Shown here: positions 5,062 through 52,030 of the stretch, piece after piece
How positions within the stretch are numbered: the first letter of the stretch is position 1
How the letters are laid out: each line of letters starts with the position of its first letter
NCBI GenBank assembly: GCA_030295235.1
Contig: AP026126.1
Span: 1,302,001-1,366,000, forward strand
Length of the DNA: 64,000 nt
Direction: 5' to 3'
DNA from: Fistulifera solaris
Taxonomy: Eukaryota
Program-made: the position numbers and the translations under genes
The notes under the pieces: model-generated
Told to the model about the DNA's origin: nothing
Databases searched by the model: none
What the model saw: the letters and a program-made list of their open reading frames with translations, nothing else

Positions 5062-5425
5062 ATTGCACACTTCCGACTATTGCACACTTCCGACTATTGC
5101 ACACTTCCGACTATTGCACACTTCCGACTATTGCACACTTCACACTCCGCTGCACACTTCCGACTATTGCACACTTCCGACTATTGCACACTTCCGACTA
5201 TTGCACACTTCCGACTATTGCACACTTCCGACTATTGCACACTTCCGACTATTGCACACTTCCGACTATTGCACACTTCCGACTATTGCACACTTCCGAC
5301 TATTGCACACTTCGACTATTGCACACTTCCGACTATTGCACACTTCCGACTATTGCACACTTCCGACTATTGCACACTTCCGACTATTGACAGACTATTG
5401 CACACTTCCGACTATTGCACACTTC
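5062..5425. repeat. Second block of the 17-bp repeat (about 20 copies)
   Basis: Same unit and orientation as 2544-3358, with a few truncated units. Confidence 0.95.
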
Positions 5426-5590
5426 ATGTTGCAATAGTTGGACATGTTGCAATAGTCGGACATGTTGTTGCAATAGTCGGACATGTTGCAATAGTCGGAC
5501 ATGTTGCCATCTCACTTCTTACTTCTCACATCTCACTTCTTACTTCTCTCATCTCACTTCTCACTTCTCACAGCTCACATGTCACTTCTC
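5426..5590. repeat. Second block of the 18-bp repeat (4-5 copies) followed by a short CT-rich inverse copy of the GA satellite
   Basis: CATGTTGCAATAGTCGGA units to about 5510, then ATCTCACTTCT units (reverse complement of AGAAGTGAGAT) to about 5590. Confidence 0.88.
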
Positions 5591-9838: not shown

Positions 9839-12800
9839 ATGGCATCTACCCAAGGCCAGTTCGCGGCGCAGTTGGCGGACTTTTGGAAAGATGACTTTGC
9901 TCCCCTGGAAGCGGCCGGCCGTGCCGTTTTGAATTGTCTTCGTGAAGACGAAGCTGCTTCGGATGCCGATCTGTATCGTCGTATTGCCAACTCTTCTACC
10001 GGATCTCATGCCTACTTTGAAGACGACGATTCGAAAATTGCGCTGCAGTGGAAACATGTGCAATCCGATCCGCTGCCCGTATTGCTGTCGCAGCAATTGT
10101 CTACGGTACAAAGTCACTCGTTGATGGGATTGTTGGCCCCTGCATCACTGGCGTGGATGAGTGTTGATCACAAACTGTATTTGTGGTCGTTTCAGAGAAA
10201 CGTGCCGAACGAATCGTTGCTGTGCTTTGAAATTCCGAGTCAACAGTGTGTGGTTAGTGTCGGATTGGTGCAACCCAAAAAGGTGCGTACACGAAATCAT
10301 CGAATTAGGGATTCTAGCCAAAAGCGATCGGGTGCTCATGTTCTATTTGTCACCAAAGGTGTCTTTAAGGATGATGTCAAATGGGGAATCGTTGTCACAA
10401 CACCCGAAGAAATATTCTTTTGTGCATTAGTTCACTGTAACCCATCAAACCCCGATTTCAGCGGCGTGGCGTGGCGATTGGTCCCCACCAGCTTTACCTT
10501 GCCGACGGATGGAGTGCGTATTTTATCCATTGCGGGTACACAGTCGGGACGCATTTTTCTGGGTGGGGATGATGGGTGCGTATACGAAATGTCGTATGAA
10601 GGACGTATTCCCGACAAAAACAATCCAGTGCTCGTGATCTCGAAATCTATTTAGATCGGTTTTATGAAAATGGCGAGAAATTACCCAATGTGGTTATCAC
10701 AGACGCGGAAGACAGGGTTCTCCAAGAGAATAAGGCGGAACCGCTCTCTTTTGGGAAACGCGCGTGGAGTGCGATCTCCGGTGATGATGAAGCTTATGAG
10801 AAGCAACCACGCAAGGTCCGAAAACTCAATCGCACTTCCGACTCTTTTCTGCGAGCCATACTTCCTGATTTTATCAGTAATCAAGCGGCGGCTTTGTTTG
10901 GCGGGAAGAATGCTACGGGTGGTGGAGGTATCGTACAAATTGCGGTGGATGAGGAGCGACAAACGCTCTACACTTTGGGGGTCAAGGGTTGGATTTGTGC
11001 CTTTGATTTACGATCTCAGTCATCGAGTGGCGACATTCGGTTGGCTTCGGTAATGGACACCGTAAAAACTTCTCGATTATATTTGGAAGCGGTGTCTCGG
11101 GGGCAGGTCATCCCACCGAATACGTTACATTCTTCTGTGCTCGGGACGTTGGTTTTCCCCGGGGGTAGCCAAGCAGCCCAAAGCGGCGTAGGAGGTATGG
11201 ACGGAGCGCGCAATATTTTGAAAATTGCTATTTCCCCGGCAGATAGGTCCAGTGCAAGTTCATGTGTTGGTGAAAATGTTTTGAAGCCTGTATCCATACA
11301 AGTGGTTGCACCATCCGAAAGTTCTCGTGTCACTCTTGTCGCTATAACACAAGGGGGCTTGCGACTCTACATATCTTCGTTAGCCCCCAGTGTTTTTAAT
11401 CATGGAACTGCGTCTGCTTTACAAAGTAATGGAATGGTCAGGACCATGTCGAACATATTAGCGCCTCACACACGGTTGACTTTTTGCCACATGCGAGCAC
11501 CGCCTATGAAAAACTCAGAAAAAGGAGTTTTAGATACATCTAGTCCAGTAGAAGGAGCAATTCTGCCACGGTATTCATCGCCTCTCAAAATCAACGCTGC
11601 TTGGTATGAAAAGGGAAACTTTGTCGCCGCTGTTGAAGGAAACTACTCGGCATCGAAGGGCCGAATGGATGAAAACCCATCGAACAATCAAAAGAGAGGC
11701 GACATCATTGTTGCAACTTCTCCTGATGCTTCACGCCATCTTGCTACGTTGTCCCGTTTATCCGGTGAGAATGGAACCAAGGAAAATAGCGATGACAAAG
11801 AGCGTTTTCTTAGTGTTGGCGGAATTAGCGAGGCTGTCTCGTTTCCGATGTCCATGGCTCTCGGAATTCGAGATAGGGATTCAGTGACACCCGGGGGAGC
11901 AATATGGCAAATCGCTTCACTTCAAGAAGGTCGCTCACCATTATTCGAGTTGCTGGTAAATTCCATGACACCATCCGAATCGGAGCTTGGTATAGGACCG
12001 CCCCCGCTTTCTATCCGTCTTCAAGGACGGGTAAGACAGGGAATGACACAAATCAGTCGAACCATAACTCCTCGACTGATCTTGTTGATTTAAAACTTTC
12101 GTCAGCAGCTCTTTCTGTTGTTGGAAGCGTTCTGGGTAAGCTACTACTTGCGAGGCCCATTTCGATGAACGGCATGCCAGCCCAAATTGCGTCAACTTCG
12201 ACCGGTGAGAACGCGATTTCACGAGGAAAACACGATTGCTATAGAATCTCCTCGCGTGATGCTTCCAATGGCTTCAGTTCGACTGCAGAAGAAAGATCTG
12301 GTGCTGTGAGCAACATTGCGTATACTGCAGGTAGTCAATCTCCTCTAAGATCAGCTAGGTTGCGACAGGGTTTACTTAAACCTCCTGCAACGTCGTTAAA
12401 CTTATTTTCGACGCAACATCTTGACCATCGTCCAAGGGAAATTGTCGCTGTTAATGCTGGCGGACTTCATTACTTTCAATTAGAGGGACATCTGCACCAA
12501 CTTGCCAATGCTATTCTATCTGCTAGAGAGCGAGTTAGGGATGATGCCACCGTTACGAGATTCTTTTCAGGGTTTGGCTACAAGGAAGGTTGTGCCATGT
12601 GCATCACGTTGGCAATTGGATGTGTTGAAGTAAGCAATGCGGATTTGAGGCGTCTTGCAATGGATGCTGCTTTCGCAAGGGCGTTGGCACCGAGACTCAT
12701 TCCATCAGAGGAATTCAATACGAAAAATAGTTCCAGCCGAAGTGTTGTTACAACTGGAACATCTGATCCCATAGTTCCTAAAGGCTTCGAATTCAAACCA

Positions 12801-33393: not shown

Positions 33394-34617
33394 CTATCTG
33401 CTTTTGGGTTTTTGTACGGTTTTTGATCGAAGTGAAATTGGGAAGATTACTTCCTTCCAATTTTCAATGAAGCCACGATTGTAAATATTTTGAGGCTCAG
33501 GACCGGGATGCTCAACTACATTCGGTGATTGAGTTGCTTCTCTATCAGTTTTGTGATCTATCTCCACATCCGGAACGGACGAAGCCGACGTACAGGTGAC
33601 ATCCTTCTCGCGAAGTTGTGGCTTGGCCTGATGCCTCGAGTCGGACACCGGTAGACCTAGTTTAACGGCTTCATTGTATTGCTTGAGCTCAAAGTTATAC
33701 CACTTTCGAACATCGTCCCATTTATACGATTCGTTCGTTGTCATCCCTCGACTGGTGAGCCAAATGTGATACGCAAGGAATAATCCCAAAGCTATTGACA
33801 TGACGCCCATCAAAATCGCCACAGCACATTGTAGAGTAAATCGATCAAAAAGGTATTGAAATAGTAGATAGTTTGTCGCCGGTACTTCTTGGCCGGTAAA
33901 ACGATCCACAAAGACGGCTTGTAAAAGATTCCTTTGTAGCAAATGCCCATAAAAGAGCGCTGCAATAATCGCAGCCCCGTAGCCGCAAGCCACCACATGC
34001 ATCAAAAGGAAAAGAAGGAAGAATCGATAATTTTCTTCTCCAATGGTGTTGTACACCCATCCACAGAAGTGATCGAACCGGGGGACGTTGCCGTTGTATC
34101 TGTGTCGATCGAATTTGCTACGGGCTGGTCGGAGGATCGACGTCGTTTTACATGTTTGCGGCACAAACAACACGTTATCGTAAGGGAAATGATTGTAGCG
34201 GTGTATATTGCTGGCAGTAATGATTCCCGGACTAGTCGATGAGGCGTAGCGCCAAGAAATTATGCATGCCGCAAAGAAAAACAAGCCGATGGCTTTGTGA
34301 TATGAAGCCACGTATTCTTGTTTATCCACCATGGGAAAGACGAAAAACCAAACGATACTCCATCCTCCGTAAAACAATGCCAGGTAGAACATCATGAGAA
34401 ATCGATCGACAAAGAACTGAATACTATACAATACATTTTGTGGAAGTAGTCGATGCAACAGTCCCCACGTTTTCTGCGGAAGCGTTTCCGTGACAAAGAA
34501 GGCCAACTTGGATTCATGCGGATCGGCAAAGAAAAATACGTATATAAAGAGGACAAGTGAGATTGCGTAGATGCCAACAACTGCGGCGAATGCAGCTGTA
34601 GAAAAGGAAAATGCCAT
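33394..34617 (-). CDS. DHHC-family S-acyltransferase (Swf1/ZDHHC4-like) with DHFC variant
   Basis: TM helices, PGII, RPARSK, RFDHFCGWVYNTIGEENYRFF, TTNESYKW, NIYNRGFIENWKEV. Confidence 0.88.
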   Translation of the reverse strand: MAFSFSTAAFAAVVGIYAISLVLFIYVFFFADPHESKLAFFVTETLPQKTWGLLHRLLPQNVLYSIQFFVDRFLMMFYLALFYGGWSIVWFFVFPMVDKQEYVASYHKAIGLFFFAACIISWRYASSTSPGIITASNIHRYNHFPYDNVLFVPQTCKTTSILRPARSKFDRHRYNGNVPRFDHFCGWVYNTIGEENYRFFLLFLLMHVVACGYGAAIIAALFYGHLLQRNLLQAVFVDRFTGQEVPATNYLLFQYLFDRFTLQCAVAILMGVMSIALGLFLAYHIWLTSRGMTTNESYKWDDVRKWYNFELKQYNEAVKLGLPVSDSRHQAKPQLREKDVTCTSASSVPDVEIDHKTDREATQSPNVVEHPGPEPQNIYNRGFIENWKEVIFPISLRSKTVQKPKSR

Positions 34618-34692
34618 GATATATGTATGATAGAGAGATAAATGTTACTGATAAAATTGAGCTGCACCCGTGGTCGAATAGAATATACAATG

Positions 34693-35081
34693 TGTTGGAA
34701 ATGAAGATGGCTGGAGGGTCGTCCGTCGTCGGAGACACGAGGGACGAGACGTGCACACACGGGCAACGAACGGAAATCAGAGAGAATTCCGTGTCGGCCA
34801 TCAACATCAAAGGATGACCCGCCCTGACCACGAAATCGACGAACGTGAAGAGACACACGGCAAATGACTTCAGTAAATCAATTAGCAGCCACAGGAAAGT
34901 GAACACGTCAGCCACGCTGCATCCTGTTGTGACCAGGGGCATAACGACGACGGGCTGAAGTGCTCATTCTTTTGCGTGAATCTAAAGTAATACGAAAGTT
35001 ATCTTTACTCGGTGTTCATAACAATATTCATCGCTGTCTTGATTGGACGCGATTATTGTTACAGAAACTGTAGTTTCAACA
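34693..35081 (+). repeat. 5' LTR (389 bp)
   Basis: TGTTGGAAATG...GTAGTTTCAACA. By eye it matches the 3' LTR except for one extra G (GAACGTGAAG vs GAACGTAAG). Confidence 0.96.
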
Positions 35082-35114
35082 TTCACGCAAAAGAAAAAAA
35101 CTTCTTGAAACAAG

Positions 35115-38100
35115 ATGTCCAGCGACAGCGGTGGAACAAAGAAGCCAGACCGCGTGGAGAGCTGGAGGAGCGGAAAATATGCAAGGGCAAGGTCGCCGCA
35201 ACAGGAACCGCAACCGTACACCTCGCAGCCGGAGAGCCATTCATAGGGAAGGTGGAAGATCTCAAAGGAGTTATCTACGATGTGGTTGCGGGCAAAGAGA
35301 CCTTCACAGAAACCACAAAACAAATTGCACTTTATGTAAGCAGGGAATTTCCGACGCTGGAGAATATCGCGTGGGAATGGTGGAGTTGAGACTGGAAGAG
35401 CTGGTGCGACCTGAACCACCTGCAGATAGAAATGACCCGGTTGCGCTGGAGCTTTGGAAAGATGAAAAGGACGCTGTCCGGAAGAAAATGGAGAAAAGAG
35501 AGAGAGCATCAGGTCAGGTCTTCTCAACAGTTATGGACCAATGCTCGCCAGCACTCATAAACCGGTTGGAGGCTCACACGGATTGGACAAGGATTCATCG
35601 TGAGGGAGATGTTATAGAGCTTTTGAAGCTCATTCGGTCAAGCATGACTCTCGGGCAGACACGACAATACGATTACCATTCATGGGTGACAGTTGAAGGG
35701 AAGCTGCGGGAGTGCAAGCAGACAAAATATATGTCCAACCACGAGTATTACGAGAAATTTAAGGAATGTGTGGCAAATGCGGAGAGACTCGGGACCGAAG
35801 TCGGATATTCTGAGCTCGGGTGCAACAGGAACTGGACGAAAGCGCGGCTGATGGCGGGAACCCTACAGAAGAGGAGCTGTCTGCAGCAAAGAAGAAAGTG
35901 AAAGAGAGCTTCCTTGCGGTTATGTTTCTTGTCAATAGTGACCAGCGCAGATACGGCGAACTGCTACGAAACATCGAGAACGACTACACCCTCGGGACCC
36001 AAAAATACCCATCGACACTCAGCGCCGCGCATCGACTGCCTTATGAACTACAAGGTTGTCCCCATTGAACGTGGAAGAGACGAAGGTGGTGGCCTAGCAT
36101 TCTACAATAATGGACAGGAAGGCCGCGGGCGGTCGAGCAGGACGCGGGCAAGGTGGCCGGGACAGCAACGGCGGACGAGGGACGTGGCCGCGGGCGTGGC
36201 GGTGGACGCGGGGATGGAGATACAAACAACTCATCGGGCGGCAAAGTATCTGAAAATGGAGATGAGGAGGCAGATCACTCGCAATATCTCTTGGATCAAG
36301 CCGATAACAATAATGATGAAGTTGCTGCGCACACCATTGACTATGTAGACCGATTAGAGACTTGCTTGCAAGTGTTGGGCCACAATGGGATGCAGGCCGA
36401 GACTCTACTCCTAGATAGTTGCTCGACAGTGTGCCTTATATCAAACGGAAGGCTGCTACATGACATTCACGACGTAGATCAGCCAATGCGCAGCGATGCA
36501 ATGCTGGAGTCCGGGCAACAAGCAAAATGGGATACTTGGGCTCTTTCCCTGAACCGGTGTGGTATGATCCTGGGGGAATAGCAAATATCCTGTCCCTCTT
36601 TGTCGTGCAGAAATATTATCATGTTACTTTTGACAGCTCGAAGGACAACAGCTTTAAGGTTCACCTGGCGAACGCAAGCCTCTGCTTCCAACCAACTGCT
36701 AAAGGACTATATGCCATGGACAAAAACGCAAGTGACAAATACGACTGGGCTATGGTTACAACTGTTCAGCAAAAGATGTCCGGATACTCAGCACGAGCAT
36801 ACAATGCTGCCGTACGCCAGAACCATACAAAACATTATGATGTACCCCAGCGACCGACAGCTTGAGGAAATCGTTGACCACAACCTGATTAAAAACTTGG
36901 GCGTGACGCGTTCAGATATACAAGCCGCGAATGATATTTTTGGTCCCAACGTTGGGTCATTGTATGGTAAGACTGTGCGTGAAAGCGTCACCTCGCGTGC
37001 AGAGCATGGCCAACGGTATCCCCGCAGACATTCAATCCAAATGCAAAAACATTGTTCTCGGTATCGACATACTATTTGTGAACAAAGTTCCGTTCTTTAT
37101 TACCACATCCCGTGACTTACACTTTGGAACTGTGGAAGACCTCAACAATCGACAAATTCCCACCGTCTCCAGCGGCTCTTGAACAGGTTGTTAAACTATA
37201 CGAACGCCGAGGGGCTGAAAGTGGTCACCATCAACGCCGACCGTGAGTTTGCTCCACTTGAAACTGACTTCCCAAAGGTGACATTCAACTTTGCTTCAGC
37301 CGATGAGCATGTACCCGAAATTGAACGCTACATCCGAACCGTCAAGGACCGAGTGCAGCCGCTACAACACATTGCCTTTCACGCCGGATCCCTCGCCTCA
37401 TGCTGGTTCGCCTTGTTGCCAATGCAGTGTTCTGGCTGAATGCCTTTCCCCACAAGGACGGGCGTGTCCACTACTCTCTCTCCCCGATATTTATTAACTG
37501 GACAGCACCTTGATGCCTCCAAGCATGTCCGATGCGAATTTGGGAGCTATGTACAGACACACGAGAAGCATACATCTGACATGCAGCCACGAACCACTGG
37601 GGCCATCTGTCTTGGACCCACTGGAAATGAGCAAGGTGGACACTACTTCTTGTCTCTGAGCACCGGCGAAAGCCTACATCGGCAGTATTGGACTCCCATG
37701 ACAATGCCCAATGACGCGTTATTGCCCGTGTCAGCCAGCTTGGTGCCAAACAGAAAATGCCCAAAACTCTCACATTTGCCAATCGCTTCGGGTTAGAACT
37801 CCCCGATTACCCCCGACGATGCAGATGACGATCATGACTCTTCTTATTCTCCAAGTGATGATGACGACTCTTCCGTCGACACGTCTTTCTCCCCACGACT
37901 CCGACTCCGATCCCGACGACCCACTTGTTGGTCCTCCCGCCCCTTGCAGGAGTGAGCCCGCCCATCGTGATCGATAATCGGAATGTTGAACCGTTCAATG
38001 ACGGAATGGACCACCCAAATGATGTCCCTCACGATGCTGAAAACAACTCTATCGGAAGCACAGGACCGGGGGGATGACGAATCTAACTCTGTTGGGAGTG

Positions 38101-40309
38101 ATACACATGAGGACTCTGTCGAGACCACAGGAGTGGAAGACTCTGTCGAAAATGCAGGAGTGGGAGACTACGTCGAAAATGCAGGAGTGGAAGAAATGGA
38201 AGACACACCGAGCGAATCAGATCAAATTGCCGCTGAAATGGACACACGATATGGACCAAGAAACCACGGGATTAATCTCAGGCCCCGGAAACCGCTGGCA
38301 GCTGACCACCTTCATGCTTATCTTGCAGACCAAGACCCAGTACTGTTACAGGAATGCGTTCAGTCGGTCATGGACTCGCTGTTTATGACCGAACAACTGC
38401 CCCTTAATCGTGGATTGAAACTGTTTGGAAAGGACGGAGCTGACTCGGTAGTCAATGAGTTGAGGCAACTGGACCGAATGGATGCCATAATCCCACGAGA
38501 TCGAAAGTCTCTGAGCCGAGAACAATTGAAACGGGCTCTGCGGTACCTTATGTACCTCAAACAGAAAAGATGCGGTCGAATCAAGGCGGGTGCGCCGATG
38601 GACGTCTCGCGACTTTACAAGAGCAAGGAGGAGACCAGCTCGCCGACGGTGGTAACAGAGTCTGTGTTTCTCACGGCGCTAGTGGCAGCTCTGGAGAGGC
38701 GCAAGTCAATGACACTTGATATCCCAGGAGCGTTCATGCATTCAAAAATGGATGAGCTCATACACATGAAACTCGAGGGGCCGATGGCGGAATTGCTAGC
38801 CAGGGTCAACCCAGGGAAGTATCGAAAGTATATTGTCACAGAGAATGGAAGGCCAGTAGTGTACGTTGAGCTTGCAAAAGCTCTATACGGGACATTACAA
38901 GCCGCCTTTCTTTTTACAAAAACATTTCATCCTTTCTGGTGGACGAGCTGGGGTTCACAATCAACCCATACGACAGCTGTGTTGCGAACAAAACAATCGA
39001 CGGAAAACAATGCACCATCTGCTGGCACGTGGACGATCTGATGATCACACATGTCGATCAAAAGGTGCTGGACGACATTGCAGAAAAATTCAACAACAAA
39101 TACGGTTCTCCCGAGGCACCGGTGACTGCAACTCGCGGGGAAGTTCACGATTATCTCGGAATGACACTTGACTTTTCTGAGGACGGGAAGGTTCAGTTCC
39201 GGATGGATGATTACGTTGAAAACTTGTTGAACGAAGCACCAAGCGATTTTGAAGGAACCTCTGTGACTCCTGCAACGGCCAACCTCTTCACTGTCAACGA
39301 TCAAGCAGAGAAACTTCCACCGGAAAAAGCAGAACTATTCCACCGGTTCACTGCCAAGCTCCTTTACTTGTGCAAACGCGTGCGAATTGATATTCAGACT
39401 GCGGTTGCATTCCTCACCACGCGAGTGAAACAACCCGATGTGGACGATTGGAAGAAGTTGGCGAGATGCATCCGATATCTTCGAGCAGATCCAAAACTCC
39501 CACTGACCCTCGAGATGGCTGATTGTTGTAAAATCGAATGGTGGATTGATGCGTCGTTTGCCGTGCATCGCGACATGCGAAGTCACACGGGGCTGACGAT
39601 GTCTTTAGGAAAAGGGTCAGCAATATCGAGCTCGACCCGACAGAAGATCAACACGAAGAGTTCGACAGAGGCCGAGTTGGTCGGAGTGGACGACGGAATG
39701 CACTTGATAACCTGGACTCGGAATTTTTTAGAGGCACAGGGGGTGAAATTAACCGACAATGTTGTCTATCAAGACAATCAAAGTGCCATTCTGTTAGAAA
39801 GGAATGGCAGGGCTTCGAGCGGGCGACGCAGTCGACACATCGACATCCGGTATTTCTTTGTGACAGACCGAATAAAAAACAAGGAGCTCCGCGTCGAGTA
39901 CTGCCCAACAACCGAGATGCTTGCAGACTTTTTTACTAAACCACTCCAGGGAAGCTTGTTCCGAAAGATGCGACAACGCGTGATGAACCTTGGATCGAGA
40001 GATGTGGATGATGCGATTCTGTGTCAAGACGGTTCACAGGAGTGTGTTGGAAATGAAGATGGCTGGAGGGTCGTCCGTCGTCGGAGACACGAGGGACGAG
40101 ACGTGCACACACGGGCAACGAACGGAAATCAGAGAGAATTCCGTGTCGGCCATCAACATCAAAGGATGACCCGCCCTGACCACGAAATCGACGAACGTAA
40201 GAGACACACGGCAAATGACTTCAGTAAATCAATTAGCAGCCACAGGAAAGTGAACACGTCAGCCACGCTGCATCCTGTTGTGACCAGGGGCATAACGACG
40301 ACGGGCTGA
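35115..40309 (+). CDS. Copia gag-pol polyprotein (multiple apparent frameshifts)
   Basis: Gag-like helical region, then protease LLLDSCSTV, integrase GIDILFV / NADREF / EHVPEIERYIRTVK, RT LDIPGAF / KALYG / WHVDDL, and RNase H IDASFA / SSTEAE / QDNQSAI / HIDIRYFF / ADFFTKPL. The last frame runs into the 3' LTR; the stop position depends on the 1-bp LTR difference. Confidence 0.93.
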
Positions 40310-40432
40310 AGTGCTCATTCTTTTGCGTGAATCTAAAGTAATACGAAAGTTATCTTTACTCGGTGTTCATAACAATATTCATCGCTGTCTTGATTGGACG
40401 CGATTATTGTTACAGAAACTGTAGTTTCAACA
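40045..40432 (+). repeat. 3' LTR (388 bp)
   Basis: Direct repeat of 34693-35081, followed by the TSD CAATG. Confidence 0.96.
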
Positions 40433-40800
40433 CAATGTCGACTGAATCTTTCTTGTTGCCTGCACAAAACATCATTAACACCGTTACAGTTTAGGTTCAT
40501 GGTTCACAGTCTGTCTTGTCAATTTTTTCCACTTTCCATTGGAGTTACATGTTATCCCTATCCCTGAGTGAAAAGGAAGATGCAGGTTCGGTGATAAAAT
40601 AATGAAAAAAGCGAAGAACTTCGCACCTCGTCCGCCGCGCTTATCATTCATTTTTTTCGTCCATTGTTGTCTTTATCAAAAAACAATAAGAACCCTGACA
40701 GGAGTTCAAAGTTCTACGAAACGAAACCATATGGTGTTTCATCCAATAATTTTAAAACTGAATAGAGACAAACTGCATTGAAGAGGAAAATCTTATTAGA

Positions 40801-51957: not shown

Positions 51958-52030
51958 TTTCCCATAGTGTAGTGGTTTAGCACCCCACACTTTGAATGTG
52001 GTAACCTGAGTTCGACTCTCAGTGGGAGAA
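51958..52030 (+). tRNA. trnQ-UUG: tRNA-Gln (anticodon TTG)
   Basis: Manual cloverleaf: acceptor TTTCCCA/TGGGAGA, D stem GTGT/GCAC, anticodon stem CCACA/TGTGG with loop CTTTGAA, T stem CTGAG/CTCAG with loop TTCGACT. TTTT follows immediately downstream. Confidence 0.9.

Follow-up and report, generated by a model that had tools for sequence, protein, structure and literature searches.

How does a Ty1/copia-type element prime its minus-strand DNA if no TGG follows its 5' LTR and the bases found there instead match the inside of its own LTR? The question is raised by an LTR retrotransposon of the window, i.e. of the whole 64-kb stretch of DNA that was analysed here. A first-pass annotation of the window had noticed that 15 bases, starting at the last base of the 5' LTR, are the reverse complement of an LTR segment lying behind an initiator-like motif, and had suggested that the transcript folds back and primes itself in the manner of Tf1, independently of tRNA. 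Both the lack of a TGG and the complementarity are present in the window sequence as described, and a comparison with related elements, in which the position of the arms is conserved while their sequences covary, supports the suggested interpretation. Based on these findings Tf1-like self-priming is the most likely way in which the element starts its minus-strand DNA, a reading to which we assign a probability of roughly 85%.

Results

Structure of the element

The element (Table 1) is an LTR retrotransposon of the Ty1/copia type that was inserted recently into the genome of a diatom, probably Fistulifera solaris. Its two LTRs have TG..CA ends, are 99.7% identical with a single 1-bp indel between them and are flanked by a 5-bp target-site duplication (TSD). 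Mapping of this pair fixes 35081 as the last base of the 5' LTR, in agreement with the first-pass annotation. A second copy of the element is not present in the 64-kb window.

At the other end of the internal region the conserved C-terminal codons of pol, which read SQECV and are seen again in the consensus of an alignment of 16 proteins, enclose the putative polypurine tract together with the start of the 3' LTR (..CAGGAGTG followed by TGTTGG, 40034-40050). The open pol frame of the window reaches about 265 nt into the 3' LTR.

Table 1. Positions of the element, its parts and the tRNA gene in the window
Feature	Position	Strand	Remarks
LTR retrotransposon, whole	34693-40432	+	5.7 kb; Ty1/copia-type; the only one in the window
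TSD, 5' copy, CAATG	34688-34692	+	identical 5-mer at 40433-40437
TSD, 3' copy, CAATG	40433-40437	+	directly outside the LTR end
5' LTR, 389 bp, TGTTG...CAACA	34693-35081	+	direct repeat of 40045-40432
3' LTR, 388 bp	40045-40432	+	contains the self-primer segment again, at 40318-40332
Presumed U3, with the promoter	34693-34966	+	all sequence upstream of the predicted start; CATAA at 34940-44
Initiator-like TCA/TT	34964-34968	+	predicted +1 at 34967; fits TCAH(+1)W
Putative self-primer (5' arm)	34967-34981	+	first 15 nt of R; 15/15 complementary to 35081-35095
Rest of R-U5, 99-nt loop	34982-35080	+	predicted to form two hairpins, with UUUCAAC left unpaired in front of the PBS
Putative primer binding site (PBS; 3' arm)	35081-35095	+	from the last LTR base; pairs with the 5' arm in the LTR
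Internal gag-pol region	35115-40044	+	first ATG at 35115; stop-to-stop ORFs
Copia-type RT-RNase H	about 38600-40040	+	within the gag-pol region
Putative polypurine-tract region, ..CAGGAGTG	40034-40044	+	directly before the 3' LTR; role as plus-strand primer inferred from position
tRNA-Gln (TTG) gene	51958-52030		only tRNA of the window

The inverted repeat at the LTR/internal boundary

The LTR segment 34967-34981 (TTCTTTTGCGTGAAT) and the segment 35081-35095 (ATTCACGCAAAAGAA), which begins with the terminal LTR base, are exact reverse complements over 15/15 positions, just as the first-pass annotation had claimed. The pairing is not extendable at either end, where an A (34966) would stand opposite an A (35096) and a C (34982) opposite a C (35080). 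With a spacer of 20-450 nt allowed, it is the sole exact inverted repeat of at least 15 nt in the 64-kb window, and when the window was locally shuffled 20 times the longest inverted repeat had 14 nt and was seen once, i.e. 15 nt were reached in 0/20 shuffles. Elsewhere in the window two arrays with a unit of about 17 bp (2300-2870 and 5070-5500) each contain many inverted-repeat matches of 12-13 nt.

On the level of RNA the two arms form the closing helix of the predicted fold of nucleotides 34967-35120, which has an energy of -45 kcal/mol as compared to -24.9 +/- 3.3 kcal/mol in 200 shuffles (z -6.1), none of which folded as well (0/200). A search of Rfam with 34600-35300 returned sub-threshold matches only, i.e. 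MIR403 with 27 bits (cutoff 70) and ctRNA with 19.6 bits (cutoff 50), which we take as generic hairpin resemblance. The bases just after the 5' arm, at 34982-34985 in the window and at the same place in relatives, are often CTAG, CTAA or TAGA; as they lie at the RNase H cut predicted below, they may be the context of a cleavage site or the base of the first hairpin.

Predicted transcription start

For diatoms an initiator-like consensus TCAH(+1)W has been described, in which transcription starts at the base after TCA (PMC4686930). In the window the motif TCATTCT (34964-34970, its A at 34966) and a CATAA at 34940-44, 26 nt upstream, are found where the first-pass annotation had placed them, and the consensus predicts the start at 34967, inside the interval of 34966 +/- 2 in which it had been expected. 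Among the 30 elements of the comparison given below the consensus puts +1 on the first base of the 5' arm in 18, on its second base in 8 and one base before it in 2, and the motif is absent in the other 2/30 (L033 and L068). Correspondingly, the arm is preceded by TCA in 18 elements and in 8 more by CTC, with the A as first base of the arm. The background of TCAH(+1)W amounts to 65 matches in 8107 positions. A TATA-like word at -40 to -19 is only modestly enriched (13/30 elements vs 21/113 control windows) and is not relied on here.

Coding region and classification

In the assembly the gag-pol region of the window is interrupted by at least 10 frame breaks, as judged from stop-to-stop ORFs, and the window copy may thus be non-autonomous. 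Since the reading frame is broken, fragments of the window score only 20 and 18.7 bits with the Pfam family RVT_2, i.e. below its cutoff of 31.6 bits, whereas full-length relatives, the Fistulifera solaris protein P0022 included, reach 53-66 bits. P0022 is the best named relative, with 100% identity over 60% of the query, and the named protein relatives come from the diatoms Fistulifera, Cylindrotheca and Nitzschia. One protein match is labelled Halothiobacillus. In the relatives the RT occupies residues ~1250-1485 of ~1800, leaving space for gag-PR-IN upstream, as would be expected for the presumed copia gene order with the integrase upstream of the RT. No integrase domain was recognised by Pfam or by PDB profile search, either in fragments of the window or in the relatives; Pfam assigned 0 families to the gag, PR and IN fragments of the window, and a PDB profile search with the polyprotein alignment gave low-complexity ribosomal and Sm matches only.

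Over 35052-38339 a contig from a public sequencing run (X1) shows 30 one-base gaps and 8 substitutions relative to the window. The frame breaks may therefore be errors of the assembly, the window then carrying single-base insertions, or the contig may represent another, possibly intact copy. As contigs of X1 cross the 5' flank into the LTR, the run behaves as DNA. Other X1 contigs run out of the LTR into different sequence at 34689 and 34717, a hint at additional copies or solo LTRs elsewhere in the genome, and in one contig 34756 is directly followed by 34992, so that 235 nt are missing, the self-primer segment among them.

The inverted repeat in related elements

Relatives were collected in two sets. 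An RT-RNase H alignment yielded a first set of 79 loci on metagenome contigs with 41-64% identity to the window. It contains 28 loci with a gag N-terminus, 23 of which have at least 400 nt upstream and are testable. Just upstream of gag an exact inverted repeat of 14-18 nt is found in 19 of these 23 loci. Two further loci keep these arms with wobble pairs, i.e. 2 G:U next to 13 Watson-Crick pairs out of 15 in L013 and one G:U in L056, and L005 and L073 (2/23) have no repeat. In L007 the 5' LTR is cut by the end of the contig, but the PBS, located after ..TTCAAC, has a 16/16 complement in the 3' LTR.

The repeat also emerges from a blind scan of the entire 334 kb, which detected 26 inverted repeats of at least 13 nt as compared to 10 in five shuffles; 22 of the 26 lie in the family context and 4 outside. 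Of these 4, two are short hairpins (in L003 and L076) and two are 15-nt inverted repeats in L034 and L051, which lack the flanking motifs and were left out of the family count.

The second set, which is independent of the first one, comprises 25 loci from genome_contigs (L080-L104) with 38-60% identity to the window. They encode diatom-type copia polyproteins on contigs, some of them 160-500 kb long, that are filed under bacterial or archaeal MAGs; these contigs look like eukaryotic DNA binned into prokaryotic genomes. The same architecture is present in 8/25 loci and, among those that have a gag start and at least 240 nt of real upstream sequence, in 4/4. L095 additionally contains, at 10888-11053 and ~7 kb from the first, an inverted second copy of its pair of LTR end and PBS, which is probably another insertion in the opposite orientation. 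A scan of viral_contigs gave 105 pattern matches and 0 relatives. Loci whose contig ends near the PBS or gag were left out (L016, L018, L023, L029, L081, L086, L088 on its gag side, L097, L099 and L100), and L102 and L073 are degenerate. The set of 30 elements used in the following consists of the window element and 29 loci from the two collections.

Position and covariation of the arms

In the 30 elements the exact arms have a length of 13-18 nt and are separated by spacers of 27-205 nt. Directly in front of the 3' arm 22 elements have CAAC, 6 have AACA and 2 have another tetranucleotide, which places the first base of the arm on the terminal A of the LTR or one base later. Where an LTR pair allowed the LTR end to be mapped (window, L003, L013 and L040), the last LTR base is the first base of the 3' arm in all four cases. 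The window and 19 relatives share one layout in their minimum-energy folds, with two hairpins in the loop and an unpaired UUUCAAC in front of the PBS.

The arms themselves differ from element to element. Although every PBS matches its own LTR over 13-18 nt, its longest match to the LTRs of the other 29 elements has a median of 6 nt and a 95th percentile of 9 nt. Matches of at least 12 nt between PBS and LTR of different elements are confined to the group L010/L011/L065/L068/L082, to the pair L026/L028 and to a single 12-nt match between L101 and L089. Altogether there are 25 distinct arm sequences among the 30 elements, in a clade that is deep, as the RT-RH identity among 28 of them ranges from 35% to 89% with a median of 51%. 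Thus, the key test named in the first-pass annotation, whether related elements keep the complementarity by compensatory changes, has a clearly positive outcome across this clade. Covariation and predicted structure together prove selection for the pairing, not for priming, and sequence alone can hardly provide stronger evidence for a functional RNA pairing than this pattern.

Discussion

A model for self-priming

We propose that the pairing serves to prime reverse transcription. The start site, cleavage, priming and re-templating that we infer would take the following course. Transcription would begin in the 5' LTR at the initiator-like TCA/T, i.e. at 34967 or 34966, and nucleotides 1-15 of the RNA would fold back across the R-U5 loop and pair with the putative PBS. 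The RNase H of the element would then cut the RNA at the 3' end of this duplex, after 34981, and the freed 3'-OH, being paired at the end of U5, could be extended by the reverse transcriptase through U5-R, resulting in minus-strand strong-stop DNA. In those relatives that have a loop of 27-52 nt, the strong-stop DNA would consequently be unusually short. Later the primer would be copied into plus-strand strong-stop DNA, and each cycle would thereby renew the PBS with the R of the element itself as template. Such re-templating would account for arms that drift between families and yet stay perfectly complementary; from what is known of Tf1, and in part by extrapolation, a PBS that is re-copied from the primer in each cycle is expected to keep perfect complementarity despite drift. 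An RNase H of the copia type is not known to cleave an RNA:RNA duplex.

The selected structure could, however, have another role, the helix closing the 5' UTR for the sake of packaging, dimerisation, translation control or RNA stability while some other primer is in use. The direct evidence is limited to structure and covariation, and the fungal GalEa elements, which are likewise of the copia type, are described as having a conserved hairpin without known role at the position of the PBS (PMC5445492). Nevertheless, we regard such a role as unlikely, as the 3' arm starts at the last LTR base or one base after it, which is where the 3' end of a primer must sit, as there is no other PBS candidate and no TGG behind the LTR, and as the predicted start of the transcript coincides with that of the 5' arm, as in Tf1.

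Even less probable, and in our opinion very unlikely, is a host tRNA, half-tRNA or other small host RNA as primer, with the LTR match being secondary. Internal tRNA halves are reported to be used by some copia lineages (PMC6317226), and the comparison covered one host tRNA, the tRNA-Gln of the window, whose longest complement to the PBS has 5 nt. A shared host primer would keep the PBS constant, but the 30 elements have 25 different PBS, each complementary to its own LTR and not to those of others, and this variation is a strong argument against a shared tRNA primer. Moreover, none of the PBS begins with TGG, and short tRNA-type PBS motifs adjoin no LTR end. Assignment to the tRNA-primed copia class was rejected on these grounds, i.e. 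as no TGG follows the LTR and as the PBS differs in nearly every relative.

Finally, a chance repeat or a feature of the DNA without any role in RNA, such as an integrase or recombination site, is highly improbable. Nothing specific speaks for it apart from AT-rich arms in many relatives, which slightly raise the background, whereas the repeat occupies the same place in all 30 elements, is longer in the window than any in 20 shuffles, and has G:U at all three of its non-Watson-Crick positions (L013 and L056) when read as plus-strand RNA, although the latter fits RNA pairing only weakly because about 1 in 8 is expected by chance.

Implications of the proposed self-priming

Self-priming of copia elements has hitherto been a prediction in one plant lineage, and the diatom element would extend it to a clade-wide pattern. 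According to the comparison, priming independent of tRNA may be widespread in an ecologically dominant algal group that is rich in copia elements. In the LTR annotation of Cyclotella cryptica, for example, only candidates with a tRNA-type PBS are described as having been kept (PMC7466962), and as a filter of this kind would tend to discard such elements, the copia content of diatoms may be underestimated. Additionally, the 15-nt duplex together with a start predicted to the base could serve as a simple experimental handle if cDNA synthesis or transposition is assayed in a diatom that can be transformed.

More tentatively, we speculate that a deep copia-like clade of diatoms has dropped host tRNA primers altogether and that each family possesses a private pair of primer and PBS, re-copied from its own R in every cycle and thus free to drift while staying matched. 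If this is true, priming would be specific for each family, the conserved PBS that is exploited by tRNA-fragment-based silencing in other eukaryotes would be gone, and the elements would be hidden from annotation pipelines that need a PBS of the tRNA type. Possibly, this trait is ancestral to CoDi-type elements and arose independently of Tf1/sushi as well as of TAR in plants. We put this wider scenario forward as a conceivable, and still rather doubtful, extension of the self-priming model.

Comparison with known systems

With canonical copia/Ty1 elements, which use tRNA-Met, whole or as a half, the element shares the LTRs, the 5-bp TSD and the position of the PBS directly after the LTR. Unlike them, it has neither a TGG nor a conserved PBS, and the PBS of the diatom elements tracks their own LTR instead. 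The CoDi elements (Maumus et al. 2009) also have diatom hosts and a divergent RT of the copia type, and the element and CoDi probably belong to the same broad group. The main text of the paper that defined CoDi (PMC2806351) contains none of the terms 'primer binding', 'tRNA', 'priming', 'PPT' and 'hairpin', and no report on self-priming of diatom copia elements was found in the literature searched, outside of which lay most subscription journals and the Repbase reports.

The fungal GalEa copia elements are described as having no PBS and instead a local 9-bp palindrome, of which the final A of the 5' LTR is part and which has no partner in the LTR (PMC5445492). They resemble the diatom elements in being of a copia lineage, in lacking a tRNA-type PBS and in having a conserved pairing site that takes in this final A. 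The element nevertheless differs from the Conserved Hairpin Site type of GalEa, as the site in the window is non-palindromic and has its partner 99 nt upstream in the LTR (27-205 nt among the 30 elements). The Skipper elements of dictyostelids are reported to be likewise without a complementary partner in the LTR (PMC5006619).

Counterparts within the superfamily are found in plants. Neumann et al. (2019, PMC6317226) predicted self-priming for 12% of plant elements, namely for the lineages Tcn1 (gypsy) and TAR (copia), based on at least 10 nt in the 5' LTR being complementary to a region 0-5 bp after the LTR, and they noted an earlier proposal of self-priming for the plant copia families Houba and Osr-1. 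The premise of the first-pass annotation, by which self-priming would be new to copia elements, is therefore wrong. TAR belongs to the same superfamily as the diatom elements and is predicted to have arrived at the same solution, whereas its hosts are land plants and the named protein relatives found here come from diatoms.

As far as we know, Tf1 is the only element for which self-priming has been demonstrated experimentally, whereas the diatom clade is known here from sequence alone; for the wider Tf1/sushi group self-priming has been proposed. The first 11 nt of the Tf1 mRNA are reported to pair with the PBS, and an RNase H cut between nucleotides 11 and 12 generates the primer (PMC7175516). 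In Tf1, as in the diatom elements, the PBS directly adjoins the 5' LTR and can pair with the start of the element's own transcript, the latter being predicted in the diatom elements, and both have a fold-back of R-U5 and no PBS of the tRNA type. The duplex has 11 nt in Tf1 as compared to 13-18 nt in the diatom clade (15 nt in the window), where, unlike in Tf1, it usually takes in the last base of the LTR. As the RT of the diatom elements is of the RVT_2 copia type and no match to a gypsy-type RT was found, membership in the Tf1/sushi clade was ruled out; the element is Tf1-like in its mode of working and stands outside of that clade, and convergence with Tf1 is plausible.
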